This document shows positions 2,537 to 49,915 of a stretch of DNA of 50,922 nucleotides, in pieces. Positions within the stretch are counted from its first letter, which is position 1, and every line of letters starts with the position of its first letter. The notes under the pieces were generated by a model. That model searched no databases, was not told where the DNA came from, and saw nothing but the letters and a program-made list of their open reading frames with translations. A program made the translations under genes and the position numbers. Where the stretch lies: the sequence record OR352937.1; one strand, given 5' to 3'. Source of the stretch: Escherichia phage AV106.

Positions 2537-2989
2537 ATGAATATGAAACGTATCGCAGAGTCTACTGGTGAAATCGATAAACGTCACATCAATGGTAACA
2601 ACGGAACACGACGCGGTAAAGATAAAAAGCCTCGCCAGCGCTGCGGATTTTATATCCATAAAGAAGAAACGCGCGCAGGACTGAGAGCGCGATTGGATGC
2701 TCTTATTGAATATTATGGTGGTCCGGCGGCTTGCGCAAAGGCTCTGAAAGTTAGCAACCAGACGGTTCAAGGGTGGAAGGATCGAAATATGATTTCCTGG
2801 CAAGGCGCTGAAGCGGCGCATCGCGCTTATCGCCGACAGGGTTGCAAAGGATTTCGGGCCGCATGGCTGCGATTCGATCTGAAGTTTGATGGGAACGGCA
2901 AGTGCCTTGAGAAGCGCTGCAAAAACAAGAAGTTTATGCGGGTCGTGAAGAAGGAAGATATTGGAACGACAAATAGCATTTTTAGTTAA
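2537..2989 (+). CDS. HTH DNA-binding protein (Cro/YdaS-like), candidate regulator
   Basis: Start moved to ATG after RBS AGGAGA; GGPAACAKALKVSNQTVQGWKDRNMIS looks like a helix-turn-helix; basic C-terminus; followed by a strong terminator. Confidence 0.4.
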   Translation: MNMKRIAESTGEIDKRHINGNNGTRRGKDKKPRQRCGFYIHKEETRAGLRARLDALIEYYGGPAACAKALKVSNQTVQGWKDRNMISWQGAEAAHRAYRRQGCKGFRAAWLRFDLKFDGNGKCLEKRCKNKKFMRVVKKEDIGTTNSIFS

Positions 2990-4014: not shown

Positions 4015-4043
4015 TTGCAAGACTCATAACACAATGATAAAAT
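4015..4043 (+). promoter_or_regulatory. Sigma70-like promoter for the tail fibre gene
   Basis: TTGCAA, 17-bp spacer, TAAAAT; a dyad-motif copy (4051..4065) lies in the 5' UTR. Confidence 0.5.
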
Positions 4044-4086
4044 CATTGCTTAGCAATTTATGCTATTTACTTAAGGAGTTTATACT

Positions 4087-6189
4087 ATGGCTTTATATAG
4101 ACGCGGTACAGCATCAATGGATGCAGACGGCACGGTTCGCGGAACCGATACGAAATGGAAAGATCAGCTTGCTTTGATTCGAGTCGGTGCAACTATCGTA
4201 TTCCTAGAGCAACCAATTAAGCTGGCGGTAATCAGCGATATTGTGAGCGACACAGAGTTAAAGGCTATCTCTACGGATGGTCAGACTGCCGCTGACGGTA
4301 AGTATGTAATCTTGCTTAACGATTCATTGACCGTTAACGGGCTTGCTCAAAACGTTGCTGAGACTCTTAGATACTATCAAAGCAAAGAGACTGAGATCGC
4401 TGGGGCAATGGATATCATTGCGAGCCTGGATATGGATAACCTTAACCGTATCGTTGAGGAAATTAAGGCGAACAAATCAGCCGCAGAAGCTGCGCAGAAT
4501 CAAGCGGAGCTTGCTCGCGACGCATCTGCTGCAAACCGTGATGCCGCAAGCCAATTTGCAACATCGGCAGAGCAAAGCAAGGATGCAGCAAAGACCAGTG
4601 AAACGAACGCCAACAGCGCTAAGACCGCCGCCGAAACAGCTAAATCTCAGGCCGTAACCGCTAAAGACCAGGCCAAAGGCTTTCGGGACGAGGCTGAAGG
4701 CTTTGCGAACAGCGCGGACGCCTCGAAAAAAGTGCCGTATGCGGGCGTCACTGTCAGCGCGCCGACTGGCATGGCGGATATGCTTAAGCGGTTACGCGAT
4801 TCTGTTAAAGGCGGTTTTTGGCGCGTTGAGGATATTTCGCAGTTCCCATCTGGCGAAACGACCCCCTTCAAATACGGCTCGGGAGTGTGTGGGGGCGCTG
4901 GGGATACATTCTTTGCCGTCAACGTTGATTGGCGGACTTCTCGCGTTAAAGTTTTCTCAGGAAACAATAACGCGATTAACGGCACGTCAGGCAACGTGAG
5001 CGCTATTGAACTGGCGAAGCTGGGTGCTAACGGTGATGTCGCGATCGGAGACGGCGGGACAGGTGCATCGACAGACTATGGAGCGCGCGCAAACCTTCAG
5101 GTCATGCTAGAAAAACAAGCATCATTGACTACGGAAGATCTTAACAGCCTGAAAGGTGATAAGTCTGGATTTTATTATACTGCCGCGAGCGTCAACGCAA
5201 CGCCGGAGCGTAATTATCCCGTTCAGGACGCAGGTTGTCTACTTGTTCAGCGCACTGGCACTAACGATCCTAGAAGCTGCATACAAACGTACACCTCACA
5301 CAGTACCGGTCGAAAATGGATTCGCTGGCTTAGCAATGGAGCAACCGAAGCATGGTCCAAATGGTACGAGATTTATAACTCGGGGTCGTCGCCGACTTTT
5401 TCCGGAGTGGTCACTGGCTCTGCGGTAACAGCTAAGGGCGACAATGCCGAAGCTAGTGTCCGTGTTATTGCCGATACAGGCGGTAAATATAGTGCTCGTA
5501 TTTCTGTAACGAATAACGCTACAAAGAGAAGTGCTAATTTAGACCTCTCTGATGACGGTACGCTAAGCACCCCCCATATAAATTCCGTCGGGGGTATAGA
5601 CAGCCAGGGCGGGATGCTTTTGCACAAAGTGCCGTACCCGGCAATAGGCTTTCGCCCAAACCGGTATACCTCACCAGACACACAACTTGGTGCATTTACT
5701 AAGTTTGAGGTTTCGGGGCAAGATGGGGAGGTGGCGTATGTATCTCTGTCGCGGCATTACGGTACAGGTGCGGCAGAAGGGGCAATGTATGTTATGTTCC
5801 CCAACACAGGCGGCACGTTGGCTTTGCAGGGGACTTCAGGTATTAATTACAAGAAAAACATTGTTGACGCCAAAGTCAACGAGGCTCTCGATAGAATAAC
5901 GGGACAGCGATTGGTAAACTTTGTATATAAAGACGATGAACAGGAGCGCGTTCGCTTCGGTATTATCGCCGAAGAAGCGGAATTAATAGCGCCGCAGTAC
6001 ATCAAGCACCATCAGACACCTTACGAGGATATTATTGACGAAGATGGAAACAAAATCGGAGAGAAAACACGGGATAGACCATCCGTCGATGTAAACCCAA
6101 TCGTCATGGATTTGATGGGGTGCGTTCAATATCTAAATAAGCAGGTGGAGGAATTGAAAGCTGCCTTAGCGGCACTGAATAAAGCATAA
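4087..6189 (+). CDS. Tail fibre protein with C-terminal intramolecular chaperone (peptidase S74-like) domain
   Basis: 700 aa; RBS AAGGAG; Ala/Gln-rich coiled-coil shaft; C-terminal RVRFGIIAEEAELIAPQYI...LNKQVEELKAALAALNKA resembles the self-cleaving chaperone domain of tail spikes; strong terminator follows. Confidence 0.65.
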   Translation: MALYRRGTASMDADGTVRGTDTKWKDQLALIRVGATIVFLEQPIKLAVISDIVSDTELKAISTDGQTAADGKYVILLNDSLTVNGLAQNVAETLRYYQSKETEIAGAMDIIASLDMDNLNRIVEEIKANKSAAEAAQNQAELARDASAANRDAASQFATSAEQSKDAAKTSETNANSAKTAAETAKSQAVTAKDQAKGFRDEAEGFANSADASKKVPYAGVTVSAPTGMADMLKRLRDSVKGGFWRVEDISQFPSGETTPFKYGSGVCGGAGDTFFAVNVDWRTSRVKVFSGNNNAINGTSGNVSAIELAKLGANGDVAIGDGGTGASTDYGARANLQVMLEKQASLTTEDLNSLKGDKSGFYYTAASVNATPERNYPVQDAGCLLVQRTGTNDPRSCIQTYTSHSTGRKWIRWLSNGATEAWSKWYEIYNSGSSPTFSGVVTGSAVTAKGDNAEASVRVIADTGGKYSARISVTNNATKRSANLDLSDDGTLSTPHINSVGGIDSQGGMLLHKVPYPAIGFRPNRYTSPDTQLGAFTKFEVSGQDGEVAYVSLSRHYGTGAAEGAMYVMFPNTGGTLALQGTSGINYKKNIVDAKVNEALDRITGQRLVNFVYKDDEQERVRFGIIAEEAELIAPQYIKHHQTPYEDIIDEDGNKIGEKTRDRPSVDVNPIVMDLMGCVQYLNKQVEELKAALAALNKA

Positions 6190-9106: not shown

Positions 9107-9185
9107 ATATTATCTATCTATATATATTATATAGAGTTTTTATCATATCTCTCTGCGGTCGGATGGGGTGGATTTTGTAACACCC
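9107..9185. repeat. AT-rich control module, copy A
   Basis: ATATTATCTATCT, then 52 bp of TA-rich sequence, then ATTTTGTAACACCC; a second copy with identical spacing lies at 40349..40427. Confidence 0.6.
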
Positions 9186-9238
9186 GTTCCGGTTACAAAA
9201 ATAGACACCTGTTACACGAAAAAATTGTAATCGTGCTA

Positions 9239-9267
9239 TTGCAATAAAAGTAAATGCGACATACAAT
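9239..9267 (+). promoter_or_regulatory. Sigma70-like promoter for the Cor-like lipoprotein gene
   Basis: TTGCAA, 17-bp spacer, TACAAT, then RBS GAGGA and ATG at 9297. Confidence 0.55.
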
Positions 9268-9296
9268 GCAATCACACTAACGACGAGGACATACAA

Positions 9297-9527
9297 ATGA
9301 AAAAGTTAATCACCATTATTGCCGCCGCATTCATCCTGACTGGTTGTGCTCAGAATCTTAAGAATGGAGACTGCGTTGCTTACGCTTACGGATCTTGCAT
9401 GATGCGATTCGTTGATGGCAATAAGATTCCGTCTGGCGAGATTGACATGCGATTCAAAGGTCTTTCATCAGACGACAACCAGGGCAACTTTAGCGGTAAG
9501 GTGTCAGTTAAAACTAAGGAGTGGTAA
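9297..9527 (+). CDS. Small outer-membrane lipoprotein, Cor/Llp-like superinfection exclusion candidate
   Basis: 76 aa; lipobox LTGC after a hydrophobic signal peptide; own consensus-like sigma70 promoter; sits beside the tail-tip genes as cor does in FhuA-dependent phages. Confidence 0.5.
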   Translation: MKKLITIIAAAFILTGCAQNLKNGDCVAYAYGSCMMRFVDGNKIPSGEIDMRFKGLSSDDNQGNFSGKVSVKTKEW

Positions 9528-9529
9528 TT

Positions 9530-10486
9530 ATGGGGCAAGGAATATACATAAATCTAAATGACGGTCGTCCAGCAATGGAGATAACCTCGGGACTTCGCGC
9601 CCCGTCATGGTGCGGACCAATACAAGCTGACGGGGTTGATTCATCTGGATCTGTTTTTGATTTTGGTCTGCAAATGAGTCCAGGATCTACCGCTTTTTGC
9701 CTTCCATCTCAGGCTATCTACATAGACGACATGGATTATATCCCGGAGGTGTATTATTTAACCAGCTTTCAGAAGGTTAATGATTCAACAGGGAGAATAA
9801 CGGTAGGTAATTTTAACGGGCACGGTGGAAGGAGGATGAGATTTTATGGCAACTGTTACGAGATCCTCCCCGCTCAGGCTGGTAATCAGGGCATACTCGT
9901 TAACGATTCAACTAACTTCGCGGCGATACCGAATAACGCAAGGTTAATGAGCGCTGCATTTGTTGGAGGTATTCAGGTTAACGGTCAAGCTCAGTTGCCA
10001 GTTCAGGGTGTTCCTTTCGGTATGTGGGATAACCCAAACGTAACACTGGAATCTGACGGGAATACAATATGGTGCAGAGACGCAAACTATAACGGTATTG
10101 ATGACGTTGGCGCGAGCGTATACGTTCAACTCGTAATATTTAATAACACCCCACCACCTCCCGGCCCGGGAATCACTATGAGCAATCCTGCTGGTCAGAT
10201 TGTTTTCTCAAGCGTTCGACGTCCTTTTGTTCTCGGCGGGACTATGGCGATAAATGACGGGTGGCAGTGGTGCGGTGGATTTTTCCCAATACTAAGAACA
10301 GGTACGATATGCAGAGTTACAGGTGGATATAATAACATTCGATACAAGGGAGTGTGTATGAGCGGCGGTAACGTGAGAAGCGCCCCCGGAACAAGAGTAG
10401 GTAATTATTCCACCCAAAGCGGAGCGCGATTCCCATTCAATATAAACATTTCAATGCCAATTCCTTTCACTCCGAACATGTATTAA
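9530..10486 (+). CDS. Hypothetical protein (possible fibre or receptor-associated)
   Basis: Start moved to ATG after RBS AAGGAG; Gly/Asn-rich with PPPPGPG linker and several Cys; bidirectional terminator follows. Confidence 0.4.
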   Translation: MGQGIYINLNDGRPAMEITSGLRAPSWCGPIQADGVDSSGSVFDFGLQMSPGSTAFCLPSQAIYIDDMDYIPEVYYLTSFQKVNDSTGRITVGNFNGHGGRRMRFYGNCYEILPAQAGNQGILVNDSTNFAAIPNNARLMSAAFVGGIQVNGQAQLPVQGVPFGMWDNPNVTLESDGNTIWCRDANYNGIDDVGASVYVQLVIFNNTPPPPGPGITMSNPAGQIVFSSVRRPFVLGGTMAINDGWQWCGGFFPILRTGTICRVTGGYNNIRYKGVCMSGGNVRSAPGTRVGNYSTQSGARFPFNINISMPIPFTPNMY

Positions 10487-10514: not shown

Positions 10515-13500
10515 TTACCAGACACCAACAACCACTCGGCCCCCGTTAGGTAGGTTAACCGTGATCCCGTTATTGTTTATCTGAACCGTGTTATTGGTTC
10601 CGTTAAATGCGAAGTTGCCGTTATTTGCGTATAGACTACCCCTTACAATTGTGTTATGAAACTCTGAAGTACCTGACTTATTAACACCCCACCCCTGAGA
10701 TCCAGGTACGAAGTTATTTGACTGAATCCATTCCCCAATCATGGCGTTAGTAATAAATCCATCCTTGATGATCGCGCTACTTAGAATAACCTGGCCATTT
10801 TCAACAACGAAGGGGTACTGAGTCTGACCATTCATTCCATTCATGATGGCAAATCGTGATGCCTCAAACAAAATCTGCGCCTTAACCGCAGCTCCGGAAC
10901 CAATCAGAGACATAGCCATTCCTGCACTGTATTCTTGGCCGTTATACTTCAGACCGAGCTTGACGCCGTACATTGCACCAGTCGAATCCGCATTGCTCCA
11001 CGAATCAAGTTTTTGAGAAAGTGCCGCCTCATTATTCCCAAGTCTCGCGCTTAACGACAAGTCAGCTTGAGTTCTCGCCTCAGTCTCGTTTGCTATAGCC
11101 TCTCTAATATCAGTCAAACTTGCCTGGATATCATCACCAATCTCTGCCTTGAGTTGGTCAATTTCACGCGATAGCGCTCCAGTCTCAGTCGCTATAACTT
11201 CACGCAATTCGCTATTGCTTGCGCTAATCTGATCGTCAAAACTTGCCTTCAACTGCTCGATCGACGTCACTCGCGCCTGCGTCTCATCAGCAATAAGTTT
11301 CAGTGATTTCGTGTACTCAGCTTTTCGTTTTCCGTTCTCCTTCTTCATGTAGATCGCGTCTTTATCATTGGCGAGCGCGTTTTCTATTGCTGCCTCTGCG
11401 TTAGCTGCGTTCTGCGCCGCGTTGTCTGTTGCGTTATCAACAAGCCACTCGTAACCAGGCGAGTTTTCGATATCGACAGAAATCTCTCCGATGATATCGT
11501 CAACGTTTGTTGATGCCATACCTCTGACAAAATCAGTCCACTGAGACACGTTACCGATCCTGTCAACCGTCCTTACCCGATACCACACAATATTCCCTCC
11601 AGGCATCGGTGAGTGATAATACTCATGCTGCGGGTACGGAATCAAAGAAAGCAAACTTGCGTTATCCACTGTTCCATCCGGTGACTGTTGCAACTCTGTA
11701 TAGGCCGTATCTCCAGAACCATCAGAGAACCCCCATTTTGTACGGATGCCAAAAACAACATCATCCGTAGCTGTAAGGTTAATAGGTCGTCCCGGCTCAC
11801 CTTGTTTACCCGTCAGCGTCGCAGCTACGATATTTGACCATCCTGAAGTCGTACCTGAGCCAGCTACAGATCGAACGCGAACCTGATAGTTTCCAGCGTA
11901 AATCCCTTCAACGTAAACCTCTTTGTTTGCCGTCTGCGGAACGTTCTGCCAGTTGCCGTTATCCTTTCGCCACTGGACGTCATAGAAAACTGCGTACGGC
12001 ACTTTATCCCAGCTAACAATCATCGTTTCTACGCTCATACCCTGGACGATTCTCGACTCTGAGGACACCTGCACGTTTTCCGGTTTAGGGATCTGATCTG
12101 GCTCAACGATGCTCGTCGGTCGGTCGTCGATGTTAACTCCGTAATCAATCTCATCGTACTTGTTAGGATCGTACTCAACCGCCGTAATCTTGTAGGTAAA
12201 CTCTTCATCATCATCACCCTTGTCGATTTTGGTCACGACGTACTGCTGCAACGCAATGTCGGTACGGTCGATTGCGAATACCGTGTTAGGCTTCACAGGA
12301 AAGCCAAAGCCGATGTTAACCTCTATAGTCTTACCATCCGCACTAACACTTGAGATTGTGCGCTTCACGGGCTTACCATCGGGCTTATTTACGATAATAA
12401 AGTCACCTGCGCGAGCATCAACGCGGAACGGCAGGAAAATCTGACTACCGGATACTTCGAGCAAACGCCCTGACAGGTTCATCGTCAAGTTACTTGACCA
12501 GAAGTTATCAGCTATTGCTACAACATCTCCGATTGTCGGGATCATGCCCTCAAGTCCGGTAGCGAAGTTTACCGTAGTGCTGCGGAGGTTAGTTTTCAGA
12601 ATCCACCTCCCGCGTCGGTTGGCCTCGCTTCGACGTGTGCAACCGATCGCTGTAATACTCGTTACGTTGTTCCCAAAACGTAGAGTAGCCTCACGATCGA
12701 ATACTGGCTCAACGTCCTGCTGATACATGTTTTGTTCATCATCAAACATCACATTACACGTCGTGTACATGCTCTTTTCGCTTGCGAACGTGTAGGAGAA
12801 GTCACCATTAACCACGTTGTCGTTAGTGAAGATGTACGCAGGCTCACGCGGCCTGTCGATGATTACCGAAATGCTTTCGCCATTCCAAAAGCTCATACCT
12901 CGAAAGATTGAGCAAATATCTCGAATAACCTTGTAAGCGTCAGTCTGAGACTGGATTATCACATCGCAAAGGTAGCGAGGTTCCGTCCCGCCCTTCCCAT
13001 CAGGAACCATCTGATCGCAATATTGCGCAGCCTCGTAGAGCGCCCATTTATCGACAGCGATACCAAGCTCTTTCTGATCCAGGCCGTAACGCTGATTAAT
13101 CATCAGGTCATAAAGAACCCACGCCGGATTATTCGTCCATGCTTTTTTGAAAGTGCCATCCCAATTGCCGTTGTATGTTCGAGATTCTGGATCGTAGTTC
13201 GACGGAACGTTTACAATCTTCCAGCGCTTACGAATTGAAATCGTAGGTAACTGGTTGGGGAACATCTTCGAATCGAACTCTACGAAAAGAAGACCAGTCA
13301 GAGGATAACGGAATTTGGCATCAATCACCTCGGCATAGCTTTTCACCTGAATTGCATCAACGACATTCGAATCACTGGAGTCGGGAGTCTTTCGAACAAC
13401 TCTTAATATTACCTGATTGTTGAAGTTAGGAAGGTTTACGCGACGGCTTCGATCATAACCTGACATTGTTTTGCCTTCGATTACGTCAGTAAGAACAGTC

Positions 13501-20107: not shown

Positions 20108-20189
20108 GATATTTCTCCTGATTGGTTAATGGCACTTTTTGTTAAAAGAGAATAGTGCAAACTTGATACGATGATTTTACAGAAATGAA

Positions 20190-20892: not shown

Positions 20893-21291
20893 TTAAGTCT
20901 CCTTTGTGTCTACTCGTACTGTAAAGCGAACCGGAATCATCCACCCGCTTTCATGTTTAACAATTTGATGCACGATTGCACCCTCGAAAATATAACCAAC
21001 GTTAAGCATTTTACCATCTTTGAAAAAATCAGCAATCTCTTTTGCTTTCAATCTTGCTTCGTCAACTCCGGATCCTGGAGGGAACACTACTCCGATCTGA
21101 ACGATTGCGATGTAAGATTTACACTTTCTGTCAATGGATAGATAAAGCGTATCACCTTCAATGTAGTTGAACCTAAGCCACATCCCGCCATCCTTCGGCG
21201 GTATGAAATTTCTGTTTTCCATGTAGTGAGGAAAGTCTCTGTACTTTGATAGAAAAGCGGCTCGCGCCGCCGCTGATAACTCATAGTGCAT
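20893..21291 (-). CDS. Tail completion / tail terminator-like protein
   Basis: 132 aa; position between the head-tail joining genes and the major tail gene. Confidence 0.35.
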   Translation of the reverse strand: MHYELSAAARAAFLSKYRDFPHYMENRNFIPPKDGGMWLRFNYIEGDTLYLSIDRKCKSYIAIVQIGVVFPPGSGVDEARLKAKEIADFFKDGKMLNVGYIFEGAIVHQIVKHESGWMIPVRFTVRVDTKET

Positions 21292-21724
21292 TTTGCTGTC
21301 TCCTTGCCTGCTTGATTGCGTCAGCCATATATGATCTCAGCCTTAATGCCACAAGGCCGACAACGCCGCTCGGTGCTTGCTGTGAATGACCGTACTCAAG
21401 AGCGTTTGCATAAATCAACATGTTTGAAAAGTGAACGGATGTTATCGCGCCGCCACGGCTGAACATGCCATAAGTTTTTGCCTGTTCCTCACCCCTGACG
21501 ACACCGCCAGTTTTATCGTATCGGTTTAATGCGTGGTTAGGGATTTCGTTAAAAGTTATCTGCCAGTTACCCTTGAATCGACCTGTATCAACAGGGGATC
21601 GGCTAACAAGAGCGTCGTGAACATCCCTTACGAATATTTCAATGGCATGTTCTAACGTGCTTTCAGCGACCTTAATCCACGCATCAATCTCGCCTTGAAA
21701 TCTACGAATCTGATAATTAGCCAC
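21281..21724 (-). CDS. Head-tail joining / neck protein
   Basis: Start moved to a GTG that overlaps the upstream stop codon (GTGGCTAA), RBS GGAGGG; the longer track ORF would overlap the upstream gene by about 100 nt. Confidence 0.35.
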   Translation of the reverse strand: MANYQIRRFQGEIDAWIKVAESTLEHAIEIFVRDVHDALVSRSPVDTGRFKGNWQITFNEIPNHALNRYDKTGGVVRGEEQAKTYGMFSRGGAITSVHFSNMLIYANALEYGHSQQAPSGVVGLVALRLRSYMADAIKQARRQQNAL

Positions 21725-47557: not shown

Positions 47558-47675
47558 AATCTCACCATATATTTTTTGAACAAGTGAGTCGATTTTAACC
47601 TTCAAATTTATTTTATACAACGCAAAAAGGCCAGCATGTAAATCATGCCAGCCCGTAAGGTTATGAATGATATTG

Positions 47676-47852
47676 TTAATCTAGCTCAATAAATTCCAGG
47701 TAATGACCATTCAGAGGAGCTTGGATTGTTGAACCTCTACCATCGTAAATCTCAAACAATCCACCTCCGAAATCATAACCAACACTATAGATCTGATTTA
47801 CGCGGAATGGAAGCGTTTTGGAATCATTTCGGATGCACTTAACTCGTTTCAT
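47676..47852 (-). CDS. Hypothetical small protein (58 aa, absent from the ORF track)
   Basis: ATG behind RBS AAAGAGGG, with a degenerate dyad motif and TATATT 22 bp apart upstream; translates MKRVKCIRNDSKTLPFRVNQIYSVGYDFGGGLFEIYDGRGSTIQAPLNGHYLEFIELD. Confidence 0.35.
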   Translation of the reverse strand: MKRVKCIRNDSKTLPFRVNQIYSVGYDFGGGLFEIYDGRGSTIQAPLNGHYLEFIELD

Positions 47853-47881
47853 GAAATACCCTCTTTGTTTTCTATGTGGTC

Positions 47882-47924
47882 AATATACCCGAATCCCTTC
47901 GGGAATTTTTGGCGATTAGTGCGA
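47882..47924 (-). promoter_or_regulatory. Degenerate dyad-motif promoter upstream of small ORF 47676..47852
   Basis: GATCGCACTAATCGCCAAAAA, 22 bp, TATATT; hairpin CCCGAA...TTCGGG. Confidence 0.4.
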
Positions 47925-49067
47925 TCCTGTCATTTCTGGACGATAGATGAATCGACCGATTTCACCAAACTGTTTATCGTAAACGATTACCGCCGCCTGG
48001 CGATATGAGCGCCACCCGCCTCGCGCTGCGTATGCATCTTTCGCGCCTAACTGCCCGTGAACCTCATCAATACCTAACGAGTGCTCAGTGATTGTCTGAT
48101 GATGCCAGTGTCCGCTATGCGTGTACACGTATTTGCTTTCACCAAAATCTGCGCGGAAATCTGCTGCCATAGCTGCGAGTCGAGTCTCTGCTTTTTTCAT
48201 CGTGTGACCGTGAGTATATCCCAGCAAAGTATTTCCCCAGCGAGTCTTATGTAGAACCATAGGGCTTACGTCAACGAATACTCTTGGCTCGTCTTCATAG
48301 TATGCAGCCATTGCGGCGCGCAACCAAATCATCCCGGCCTGGTCGTGGTTTCCTTCGACAACCTGAACTTCGACCTCTTTGTGTTTAGTCAGCATTTTGT
48401 CGATAGCTCGTCGCACCGATCGAATAGCCACATGCACCAATTTCGCATATCGTGAATCCTGATCCAGAACGTGACCACTTGCCGGGGTAACAGCATCAAG
48501 ACCGTCTGAGTGAAGGAAGTCGCCGCCGATTAACAGAACAGCCTTCTCTGCGTTCGGGGCAATATCGATCGCGTAGTTAAAGAAGTCATTCAGCACTTTT
48601 TCCGCTACGTCTGTAGAGTAGTTCTCTCCGCATTCATGCTTGTGAGCAAGCGCGCCAATGTGAAGATCGAACACCGGGTAGAGTGCTAGCTTGCCAATAG
48701 CGGTTGTAAGCCCTTGCGAGGTGAGTAGCTCAGTTGGTTTTGCTCGCGGCAAGTCTTCACAGAATGCAATACGCGCTGCTTCCATCATTGCAGCAATCTT
48801 CTCTCGGTCCTGATCGGTCTTAACCCATCGCACTACCTCGGTCCCATCGCCGCGAATCATCGTTGATGTGCCTTTTACCATGAATCCTTCCGGTACGTTC
48901 TTAGCAACATGCTCGTTACCGTGGAAGTGACCTTCTTTTGCAAGTTTGGCGTGACGCGCTTCAACTGTGCGGATGTGCATACCGTACTTTTCCGCGATCT
49001 CGCGAAGTGTAAGGCCGCTCATGCGCTCTTCGATAAGTTGCTCGGTAGTGATTTTAGCTTGTGACAT
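47916..49067 (-). CDS. Calcineurin-like metallophosphoesterase with N-terminal HTH domain
   Basis: 383 aa; N-terminal LTLREIAEKYGMHIRTVEARHAKL (HTH-like); phosphoesterase motifs GDFLHSD, GNHD, GHWHH. Confidence 0.6.
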   Translation of the reverse strand: MSQAKITTEQLIEERMSGLTLREIAEKYGMHIRTVEARHAKLAKEGHFHGNEHVAKNVPEGFMVKGTSTMIRGDGTEVVRWVKTDQDREKIAAMMEAARIAFCEDLPRAKPTELLTSQGLTTAIGKLALYPVFDLHIGALAHKHECGENYSTDVAEKVLNDFFNYAIDIAPNAEKAVLLIGGDFLHSDGLDAVTPASGHVLDQDSRYAKLVHVAIRSVRRAIDKMLTKHKEVEVQVVEGNHDQAGMIWLRAAMAAYYEDEPRVFVDVSPMVLHKTRWGNTLLGYTHGHTMKKAETRLAAMAADFRADFGESKYVYTHSGHWHHQTITEHSLGIDEVHGQLGAKDAYAARGGWRSYRQAAVIVYDKQFGEIGRFIYRPEMTGSH

Positions 49068-49145
49068 ATTTTAATCCTTACATGATAATGAAATACATTA
49101 CTGAAAATGAAATTAGCGGTGTTAATACTACAGCAAAATAAAGAT

Positions 49146-49547
49146 TCATGCCACAGCCTTTAACCAGAATCCTAGATCTGACGATTTAAACTCAACCAGC
49201 TTTCCGTCAACCTCAAGCATCATACTGTTTCTACCAGGTGAGTAATAACCTATATGCAACTCCTGATCGATCCCTATGGTACACAGCACGTTTGCGAAGT
49301 CAGGAGGCAACCAATCAGAGAAAGGTATTTTCTTAACCTGCTTCTTTCCGATCCATATGGTCTGGTAATCGTCTTCGTTAATGTTTAAGCCTGGAAGGCT
49401 TGTTGTTCTTTGCTGCTTTTCGTTCTCTCTCAATTCTCTTTCCCTCTTCACGATAAAACTCAAGTGACGGAGTTGCTGGCACTCTATGCATTTTTCTCGG
49501 CATATCTTCCATAAATGAAATCTTGCCATTTGAGATAATGCTAACAT
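49146..49547 (-). CDS. Hypothetical protein (start uncertain)
   Basis: 133 aa in the track; overlaps ORF 49378..49650 in another frame and a dyad-like sequence lies inside the overlap. Confidence 0.3.
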   Translation of the reverse strand: MLALSQMARFHLWKICREKCIECQQLRHLSFIVKRERELRENEKQQRTTSLPGLNINEDDYQTIWIGKKQVKKIPFSDWLPPDFANVLCTIGIDQELHIGYYSPGRNSMMLEVDGKLVEFKSSDLGFWLKAVA

Positions 49548-49627
49548 CCTTTATATAGAAATATTTCGCTATTAGTGCTATATCGTCTGAGATTCCGCAT
49601 TCCTTCGCGTGCTCCCAAACCTCTCGT

Positions 49628-49837
49628 TTACCTTGTTTTTTTATCAGCATTGGTTAGTTTCTCCACGCTTTCAATAAAACACTCAACATCTTTGACTGAG
49701 CAGAGGTAATAAGCCATTTTAAGGAAGTTCATAGCAATATCCCAATCAAAGTTACCGCCTTTCTTGTCAGTGATATGAACAGCCATTTTTGCGGACTGTT
49801 GAGCGATATTGAAAAAGTTTGCGTTAATGCGTGCCAT
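49628..49837 (-). CDS. Hypothetical protein
   Basis: 69 aa; RBS GAGGAATAAGAAG; dyad motif and TATAGT upstream. Confidence 0.4.
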   Translation of the reverse strand: MARINANFFNIAQQSAKMAVHITDKKGGNFDWDIAMNFLKMAYYLCSVKDVECFIESVEKLTNADKKTR

Positions 49838-49869: not shown

Positions 49870-49915
49870 ACTATACCCGACTTTCGCCGGGTAGTTTTAG
49901 CAATTAGTGCTGTAA
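49870..49915 (-). promoter_or_regulatory. Dyad-motif promoter
   Basis: TACAGCACTAATTGCTAAAAC, 22 bp, TATAGT in the loop of ACCCGG...CGGGT. Confidence 0.55.

Follow-up and report, generated by a model that had tools for sequence, protein, structure and literature searches.

HTH-MPE, a widespread helix-turn-helix metallophosphoesterase of phages and a possible stand-alone DNA nuclease

Overview

The minus-strand gene at 47916..49067 in the genome of Escherichia phage AV106 (OR352937.1) encodes a protein in which an N-terminal helix-turn-helix (HTH) precedes a metallophosphoesterase (MPE) domain, and which we refer to as HTH-MPE. The stretch of DNA that was analysed (50,922 nucleotides, hereafter the window) is the complete, circularly permuted genome of a T1-like phage (Tunavirus). 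HTH-MPE is not new: it is a member of an already catalogued and widespread phage gene family. Its domain architecture, its intact active site, its fold neighbours, its wide distribution and the lack of an ATPase partner are observed or computed here, and we propose, with what we regard as an even chance of being right, that it is a stand-alone, HTH-tethered two-metal DNA phosphodiesterase (a nuclease), devoted to the processing of DNA ends or structures or to the breakdown of host DNA.

An earlier reading of the gene (the original prediction) had considered a Mre11/SbcD-like nuclease, a protein phosphatase acting on host proteins or an enzyme that degrades cyclic-nucleotide defence signals, and had made the HTH a candidate for binding a dyad motif of the genome. 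This interpretation is partly supported: the protein is nuclease-like, a protein phosphatase is unlikely, and the binding of the dyad by the HTH finds no support.

Catalytic domain and active site

The gene and the parts of its product, with amino acid (aa) positions, are the following.

47916..49067, minus strand: HTH-MPE gene, 383 aa and a stop codon, ATG start
48936..49046, minus strand: three-helix HTH, aa 8-44, with helix 2 LREIAEKYG and recognition helix IRTVEARHAKLAK (from AlphaFold2 and family Pfam matches)
48759..48884, minus strand: beta-hairpin and helix module, aa 62-103 (VKGTSTMI...VVRWVKT), strands 62-71 and 77-86, helix 88-103
47919..48704, minus strand: metallophosphoesterase domain, aa 122-383, motifs D134xH136, GD183, GN240H241D, H286 and GH320xH322
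48504-48524, minus strand: motif II GDFLHSD, aa 182-188 (codon-by-codon check on the DNA)
48450..48509, minus strand: family-specific insert 3' of motif II, aa 187-206, 20 residues, SDGLDAVTPASGHVLDQDSRY
48342-48353, minus strand: motif III GNHD, aa 239-242 (same check)
48099-48113, minus strand: motif GHWHH, aa 319-323 (same check)

The open reading frame (ORF) and the three motifs on which the original prediction relied, GDFLHSD, GNHD and GHWHH, are all found on the DNA where they had been placed. Two further motifs had escaped notice, motif I FDLHIG (D134/H136) and motif IV THGH (H286/H288), so that the five motifs of the calcineurin-like metallophosphoesterase superfamily are present, as is its beta-alpha-beta-alpha-beta sandwich fold. 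The Pfam model of this superfamily, PF00149, gives 16.2 bits with the window protein, below its gathering cut-off of 21.5, but it matches 22 of 88 relatives at E <= 0.01 and at least one of them (P0146, 25.1 bits) above the cut-off.

These 88 diverse relatives (31-67% identity), retrieved in a search of 1.84 billion cluster representatives, form the alignment from which conservation was deduced. D134, H136, D183, N240, H241, H286 and H322 are invariant in 88/88 relatives, and position 320 is a histidine in 85. The absence of metal-coordinating residues had been chosen beforehand as the observation that would speak against the original prediction; the ligands are all there, either invariant or conserved to this extent. 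The gene is thus predicted to encode an intact two-metal site with all five motifs, and since every metal ligand is present the enzyme should be active.

Conservation in the family peaks in the insert that follows motif II, with 59% identity over the 88 sequences and 92% within Drexlerviridae, compared to 39% and 75%, respectively, for the MPE domain as a whole. Four of its residues stand out (T194 and D202, each in 87/88 sequences, D204 in 81/88 and R206 in 83/88). We consider it as a candidate substrate-binding element specific to the family.

The N-terminal modules

The presence of an N-terminal HTH, which had been claimed from the letters, is confirmed by several results. AlphaFold2 predicts helices at residues 8-16, 21-27 and 32-44, with block-mean pLDDT values of 92-95 across residues 11-40; members of the family match HTH models of Pfam (Sigma70_r4_2 at E = 1.5e-9, GerE at 2.4e-8, HTH_8 at 1.8e-6, and also HTH_1), the scores of the window protein itself being sub-threshold (E about 0.02); and GerE is the top sequence match of the family profile in the PDB. 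The HTH is found across the family: longer relatives have one or two recognisable N-terminal HTHs, and the alignment begins inside the HTH for 81 of the 150 best representatives. It is nevertheless the least conserved part of the protein, with a mean identity to the window protein of 19% in the 88 sequences, versus 39% for the catalytic domain.

The beta-hairpin and helix module is conserved more than the HTH (G75 in 82/88 and W81 in 85/88 sequences), and none of the 25 Pfam families most often matched by relatives, out of 35 in all, extends over it. It is possibly a second nucleic-acid-binding element. The linker that follows it, aa 105-121, is poorly conserved.

Family membership and distribution

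HTH-MPE matches PHROG 704 ("DNA repair exonuclease") over its full length, with E = 7.3e-157 and residues 4-380 aligned on positions 2-389 of the 390 of the profile. Its orthologs include gene 16 of T1 (ST16, called "DNA repair exonuclease" in RefSeq and found at the same position) and B508_00370 of phage ADB-2; these two share with it a slot upstream of (HNH)-(SH3)-holin-endolysin-spanin, which is also described in PMC13164509. There is no substantive difference between the HTH-MPE gene and PHROG 704 or T1 gene 16: it is the same gene. TLS gp66 is probably another ortholog, judging by its position directly upstream of the holin gp67; the authors of the TLS study termed it "proof-reading exonuclease" (PMC11447400).

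The 383-aa protein is identical (100%) to that of Escherichia phage XJA18-XJ-2024 in its GenBank entry, and the region 47600-49400 is 99.5% identical to the DNA of this phage and 91-97% identical to that of Tunavirus phages (ADB-2, Sfin series). Hundreds of Drexlerviridae proteins have 65-100% identity to HTH-MPE, and a gene of the PHROG 704 type is a core gene present in 508 of 522 Drexlerviridae (PMC13164509). Homologs were found in 2018 of 50,697 phage records, that is about 4% of sequenced phage genomes, from Drexlerviridae, Jerseyvirus, Dhillonvirus and Jedunavirus to phages of Vibrio, Campylobacter, Rhodobacter and Ruegeria; 5377 representatives of clusters built at 50% identity match at E <= 1e-3. 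The scores that the window protein itself obtains with the HTH and Metallophos Pfam models fall below the gathering thresholds, hence the "hypothetical" of many GenBank records. "DNA repair exonuclease" is a homology-derived label, and the practical gain of the present analysis is a better one than this or "proof-reading exonuclease".

Relation to known metallophosphoesterases

A search of the PDB with the protein sequence (phmmer) returned no match. The structure was modelled with AlphaFold2 from the 88 diverse sequences (pLDDT 92.2, pTM 0.79); an earlier model built from 13 close homologs (pLDDT 66), for which a Foldseek search of the PDB gave only noise, was discarded. The fold neighbours of the 88-sequence model are listed here with the figure obtained for each.

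16.0: PolD DP1 3'-5' exonuclease
14.6: Mre11 (3qg5)
14.5: SbcD (7dog)
13.9: MJ0936
13.5: LpxH
12.3: Rv0805
9.1: Pseudomonas putida nuclease MPE, 23% identity, the highest identity listed
8.9: PP5

According to this list, the nuclease clade is the nearest to the modelled protein, and the PPP protein phosphatases are far away. HTH-MPE resembles Mre11 and DP1 but is a member of neither family; it is a member of PHROG 704. The placement by profiles that the original prediction had called for gives a full-length answer with PHROG 704, and a superfamily-level one with Mre11/SbcD and PdeM.

Like Mre11 and SbcD, HTH-MPE has the MPE fold with five motifs and a motif III that reads GNHD. In Mre11 a histidine stands three residues after the aspartate of motif II, a layout that is also that of GDFLH. 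On the other hand, no SbcD/Mre11 family model is among the protein's NCBIfam or Pfam matches, and the family profile aligns with Mre11 chains of the PDB at E 0.19-0.7 over about 80 residues only. No SMC-like ATPase of the Rad50/SbcC type is found in the window, whose ORFs of at least 500 aa all encode helicases, tail proteins, the tape measure or TerL, and the annotations of the examined ADB-2 region and of two T1 regions list none. There is no room for a C-terminal capping domain of the Mre11 type, since the protein ends with the MPE core, as deduced from its length and secondary structure rather than from coordinates. HTH-MPE also differs from Mre11/SbcD by its own predicted DNA-binding modules, the HTH and the beta-hairpin, and by the 20-residue insert after motif II. 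Of the functions first suggested, the Mre11/SbcD-like nuclease is the one best supported, by GDFLH, the HTH and DNA-metabolic neighbours; what does not hold is membership of the Mre11/SbcD family, for which the ATPase, the capping domain and the family match are all missing.

DP1, the archaeal 3'-5' proofreading exonuclease of PolD, has an OB fold before its MPE domain, where HTH-MPE has a two-stranded hairpin. Some metagenomic phage relatives are automatically annotated "DNA polymerase II small subunit", but the identity to DP1 is 13% and there is no DP2 catalytic partner: a scan of 30 window ORFs against PHROGs, among them all those of at least 300 aa, gives no match to a DNA polymerase family, and T1 and TLS are reported to have no DNA polymerase at all (PMC11447400).

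The ligase-associated nuclease MPE, or PdeM (P. putida MPE, PDB 6nvo), provides a precedent for a stand-alone MPE that acts as a DNA nuclease without an ATPase partner. The PdeM model TIGR04123 of NCBIfam gives 13.1 bits (E = 0.046), far from its cut-off of 150 bits. A homolog of HTH-MPE in a Campylobacter phage adjoins a DNA ligase gene. The differences are that PdeM has about 200 aa and neither an HTH nor a hairpin module, and that T1-like phages lack its ligase and Lhr partners.

A last likeness is positional. In phage lambda, the HTH protein NinH is followed by the MPE NinI where the early region ends, just ahead of Q and the lysis genes, and homologs of HTH-MPE fill the same slot of the nin region in other lambdoid prophages. 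NinI is a protein phosphatase of the PPP type with no detectable profile similarity to the family, and the match of the family HTH to that of NinH is generic; the idea that HTH-MPE is by homology a fusion of NinH and NinI was therefore rejected, and the analogy of position was kept.

Genomic contexts

Contexts were sampled from contigs encoding homologs and from annotated phage records. In lambdoid prophages the homolog belongs to the nin region, arranged as NinB ... HTH-MPE, HNH, Q, with a RecA-dependent nuclease, YbcO and DUF1064 also present. In four temperate contigs it is the last gene after lysis or tail genes and adjoins the integrase gene, in one case beside a BrnT/BrnA toxin-antitoxin pair. 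Jerseyvirus homologs lie in an island with superinfection-immunity, HNH and antirepressor genes, and those of Dhillonvirus between the endolysin gene and TerS. One contig has the homolog near a beta-clamp gene, and Jedunavirus has it downstream of the primase gene. In the Campylobacter Fletchervirus, genes for a Holliday-junction resolvase and a DNA ligase precede an MPE that has no HTH. In Webervirus, the MPE gene is followed by that of a HAD-type 3'-phosphatase and then by that of a deoxynucleoside monophosphate (dNMP) kinase of the P-loop type.

The gene of Klebsiella phage MagicalPorter annotated as a "polynucleotide kinase" (locus L009, 6160-6648) matches only the HAD PNKP phosphatase family PF25109 (E = 2.3e-18), and no kinase family. 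This label is misleading in Webervirus, where the P-loop kinase is the next gene.

An HNH endonuclease gene is often found directly 3' of the HTH-MPE gene (T1 ST15, SeF1, and loci L002 at 11137-11709, L005 at 9137-9709, L007 at 21128-21598 and L019 at 4029-4511), frequently with a 4-nucleotide overlap and in unrelated phages, namely Pseudomonas-type lambdoid prophages, Jerseyvirus and T1. Homing-endonuclease traffic beside a conserved gene may explain this, or a functional pairing.

Proposed function

We infer that the substrate of HTH-MPE is DNA, and likewise its biological role. In the mechanism that we propose, the HTH and the hairpin would dock the enzyme on duplex DNA, the hairpin/helix module probably taking part in holding it. 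The metal centre, predicted to consist of D134, H136, D183, N240, H286, H320 and H322, would hydrolyse a phosphodiester at DNA ends or in structured DNA (nicks, hairpins, blocked ends), while H241 and H186 of motif II would help to place the scissile phosphate, and the enzyme would work without a Rad50/SbcC ATPase. In T1-like phages its gene, which comes just ahead of the lysis genes, would be expressed as the distal part of an early/middle transcription unit, and the role of the enzyme would most likely be in phage DNA metabolism, either in the processing of replication or recombination intermediates or as a share in degrading host DNA to nucleotides. Besides the HTH found across the family and the metal ligands and catalytic histidine conserved in the relatives, this proposal is supported by the DNA-metabolic genes (ligase, Holliday-junction resolvase, NinB, beta-clamp, primase) that neighbour homologs in unrelated phages.

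It is well documented that T1 and TLS degrade the host DNA and reuse its nucleotides, and as of 2024 no gene product had been assigned to this activity (PMC11447400). HTH-MPE is a candidate because it is a core, nuclease-like gene and because its Webervirus homolog is flanked by the genes of a 3'-phosphatase and a dNMP kinase, but we consider it unlikely that it is the enzyme behind the degradation of the host chromosome. The classical T1 gene connected with host-DNA degradation is gene 2.5. Generalised transduction is improved in T1 mutants impaired in this degradation (Roberts and Drexler 1981, as cited in PMC11447400). If HTH-MPE does degrade host DNA in T1 and TLS, this would close a gap that the 2024 study states (PMC11447400).

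Several observations weigh against the nuclease proposal. The sequence similarity to Mre11/SbcD or to PdeM (E 0.05-0.7) is at superfamily level only, and we found in the literature no biochemical or genetic data on any member of the family. The genome already encodes a RecE-like exonuclease, an Erf annealing protein and a VRR-NUC nuclease (the last according to the annotation of the ADB-2 ortholog), so that the MPE is not obviously needed for recombination. The presence of homologs in temperate phages, in accessory slots near the integrase, argues against an indiscriminate degradation of host DNA, and such slots, together with the island of Jerseyvirus, fit a role in conflict or as an accessory function better than one in core DNA metabolism. 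Since the family is large and we found no experimental characterisation of it in the literature, a biochemical study would serve to annotate thousands of genes.

Alternative functions

The slots just mentioned lead to the alternative of an accessory enzyme used in conflicts, for anti-defence or for competition between phages, which would for example degrade a nucleotide immune signal or attack competing or incoming DNA. We consider it unlikely. The integrase-proximal position in temperate contigs, once beside BrnT/BrnA, and the company of superinfection-immunity and antirepressor genes in Jerseyvirus are what one would expect of such an enzyme. But no family of PADLOC-DB v2 matches at E <= 1, no literature linking the family to a defence system was found, and it is not obvious why a phosphodiesterase acting on small molecules would require an HTH plus another putative DNA-binding module. 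Moreover, nearly all virulent Drexlerviridae carry the gene as part of their core (PMC13164509), an unusual distribution for a host-specific counter-defence gene.

Another possibility, which we regard as very unlikely, is an end-healing phosphatase, which would mend broken ends of tRNA or DNA as a 3'-phosphatase or a 2',3'-cyclic phosphodiesterase. The models for this function are lambda phosphatase, which has end-healing activity in vitro, and the MPE domain of bacterial Pnkp, which has it as well. In its favour, the next genes in Webervirus encode a HAD-type PNKP phosphatase domain and a P-loop kinase, a DNA ligase gene precedes the homolog in the Campylobacter phage, and T1 encodes a T4-like polynucleotide kinase elsewhere in its genome. 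The idea of a partnership was downgraded because the "polynucleotide kinase" of Webervirus is a HAD_PNKP phosphatase domain: an adjoining, dedicated HAD 3'-phosphatase makes a second 3'-phosphatase, the MPE, redundant. In addition, no RNA ligase was seen among the window ORFs scanned, and the protein has no similarity to lambda phosphatase.

A third alternative gives the HTH a regulatory meaning: it would bind a specific operator, in T1-like phages possibly the approximately 20-copy ATAGCAC-N3-TTGnTA, and the MPE would modulate transcription or act locally. The corresponding dyad, TAGCA-N5-TGCTA, occurs in 22 copies with at most one mismatch in the window versus 1.5 expected, and its oriented form, TAGCAC-N3-TTGnTA, in 12 exact copies versus 0.02 expected. 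It is the 21-nucleotide repeat aaATAGCACnnnTTGnTAAAA described for TLS, T1, Rtp and Rogue1, to which the TLS study assigns neither a function nor a binding protein (PMC11447400). The sites of the 15-nucleotide repeat and the gene of a regulator discussed below are at the following positions.

2509, 23895, 30855, 32686, 33981, 34501, 36136, 37423, 38477: sites of the 15-nucleotide repeat, first half
39214, 40476, 40681, 41447, 41911, 43263, 43778, 44278, 49898: sites of the 15-nucleotide repeat, second half
2537..2989, plus strand: Cro-like regulator, 150 aa, PHROG 2856, with a weak P22_Cro/YdaS HTH

Besides the strong over-representation of the repeat and the vacancy for its binding protein, this alternative has in its favour that the HTH is similar to sigma-70 region 4 and to LuxR-type HTHs, that the repeat contains a TTGnTA reminiscent of a -35 element, and that R33, E36 and R38 in the recognition helix do not vary among Drexlerviridae. 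We nevertheless hold it to be very improbable. The repeat is present in the loci of Tunavirus, Webervirus and Rogunavirinae, but about 160 kb of homolog-encoding loci from Jerseyvirus, Dhillonvirus and prophages contain no copy of it, and therefore the function of the family cannot rest on it. Conservation of the HTH within Drexlerviridae does not exceed that of the remainder of the protein (66% vs 75%), and the fully conserved active site speaks for a catalytic role. There is also a more natural candidate for binding the repeat, the Cro-like regulator PHROG 2856: its start codon is 14 nucleotides from a perfect copy of the dyad (TAGCAAAAAGTGCTA, 2509-2523), which faces the divergent helicase gene, and it is encoded in all three Drexlerviridae loci with the repeat that were checked, beside the primase gene in Webervirus and Rogunavirinae. 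The initial suggestion that the HTH of HTH-MPE binds the dyad thus receives no support from the restriction of the repeat to Drexlerviridae among the loci examined, from the conservation of the HTH or from the proximity of this regulator. The more specific version, a sequence-directed "trigger enzyme" whose HTH would recognise some 20 promoter-associated repeats and whose phosphodiesterase would act at them or be regulated from them, is a long shot; if it were true, T1-like phages would gain a new regulator of transcription or of DNA processing.

Finally, a Ser/Thr/Tyr protein phosphatase acting on host proteins, as a functional analogue of lambda NinI, is suggested by the positional analogy between NinH(HTH)-NinI(MPE)-Q-S-R-Rz in lambda, HTH-MPE-HNH-Q in lambdoid prophages and HTH-MPE-(SH3)-holin in T1-like phages, and by a weak alignment of the family HTH with that of NinH (hhalign probability 48%), but it is most improbable given that PPP phosphatases are characterised by GDxHG, GDxVDRG and GNHE, in place of the last two of which HTH-MPE has GDFLHSD and GNHD, and that the hhalign probability of the family profile with NinI is 0.6%.

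Neighbouring genes and signals

The following signals surround the HTH-MPE gene.

49898..49912, minus strand: closest copy of the Drexlerviridae repeat on the upstream side (CAGCACTAATTGCTA), with a hairpin and TATAGT after it
49075..49079, minus strand: Shine-Dalgarno AAGGA, 7 nucleotides 5' of the ATG of HTH-MPE, read from the sequence
47888..47903, strand unassigned: terminator-like hairpin CCCGAA-GGGA-TTCGGG, 13 nucleotides past the stop codon of HTH-MPE

The region of the repeat at 49898..49912 is probably the promoter region of a unit that spans 49837..47916 and of which the HTH-MPE gene is the last. At the same place T1 has a terminator, followed by genes 18-17-16. T1 also has an annotated rho-independent terminator after gene 16, at a place equivalent to that of the hairpin 47888..47903.

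In many copies of the repeat, aaTAGCAC-N3-TTGnTAaaa, a hairpin begins about 3-12 nucleotides past the repeat. The stem varies from copy to copy, and TATAGT or TGaTATAGT, which is similar to an extended -10 element, is constant in the loop or at the 3' edge (for example AAGGCCA-tttgatatag-TGGCCTT at 36136rc). The distance from TTGnTA to TATAGT is 22 nucleotides in the three copies counted, too far for a standard sigma-70 promoter. This pattern of variable stems and constant loops looks like structural covariation; no mention of it was found in the part of the TLS paper considered here (PMC11447400).

Between the HTH-MPE gene and the holin gene, a 58-aa ORF (47676-47852, minus strand) encodes a stand-alone SH3-like DUF7244 (Pfam E = 8.5e-29, PHROG 4788), a protein recently described as an accessory part of the lysis module of Drexlerviridae (PMC13164509). 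A strong terminator-like hairpin (47654-47628, minus strand) stands between this ORF and the holin gene. On the other side, the region 49146-49650 (minus strand) contains two overlapping listed ORFs of 133 and 90 aa, where ADB-2 has an annotated protein of 95 aa. The true start of the 133-aa ORF is probably an internal codon, since its PHROG matches are confined to residues 50-132.

Elsewhere in the window, the word AACCARTCAG occurs at 18 sites versus 0.17 expected, for instance at 20118(-), 36079(-), 40735(+), 41963(+) and 43836(+). The copies of the form AACCAGTCAG are mostly within genes and on both strands. Five of the eight AACCAATCAG copies are directly 5' of a Shine-Dalgarno sequence and a start codon (AACCAATCAGgagaa...ATG), and these copies before start codons resemble a conserved leader or a putative translational-enhancer element.

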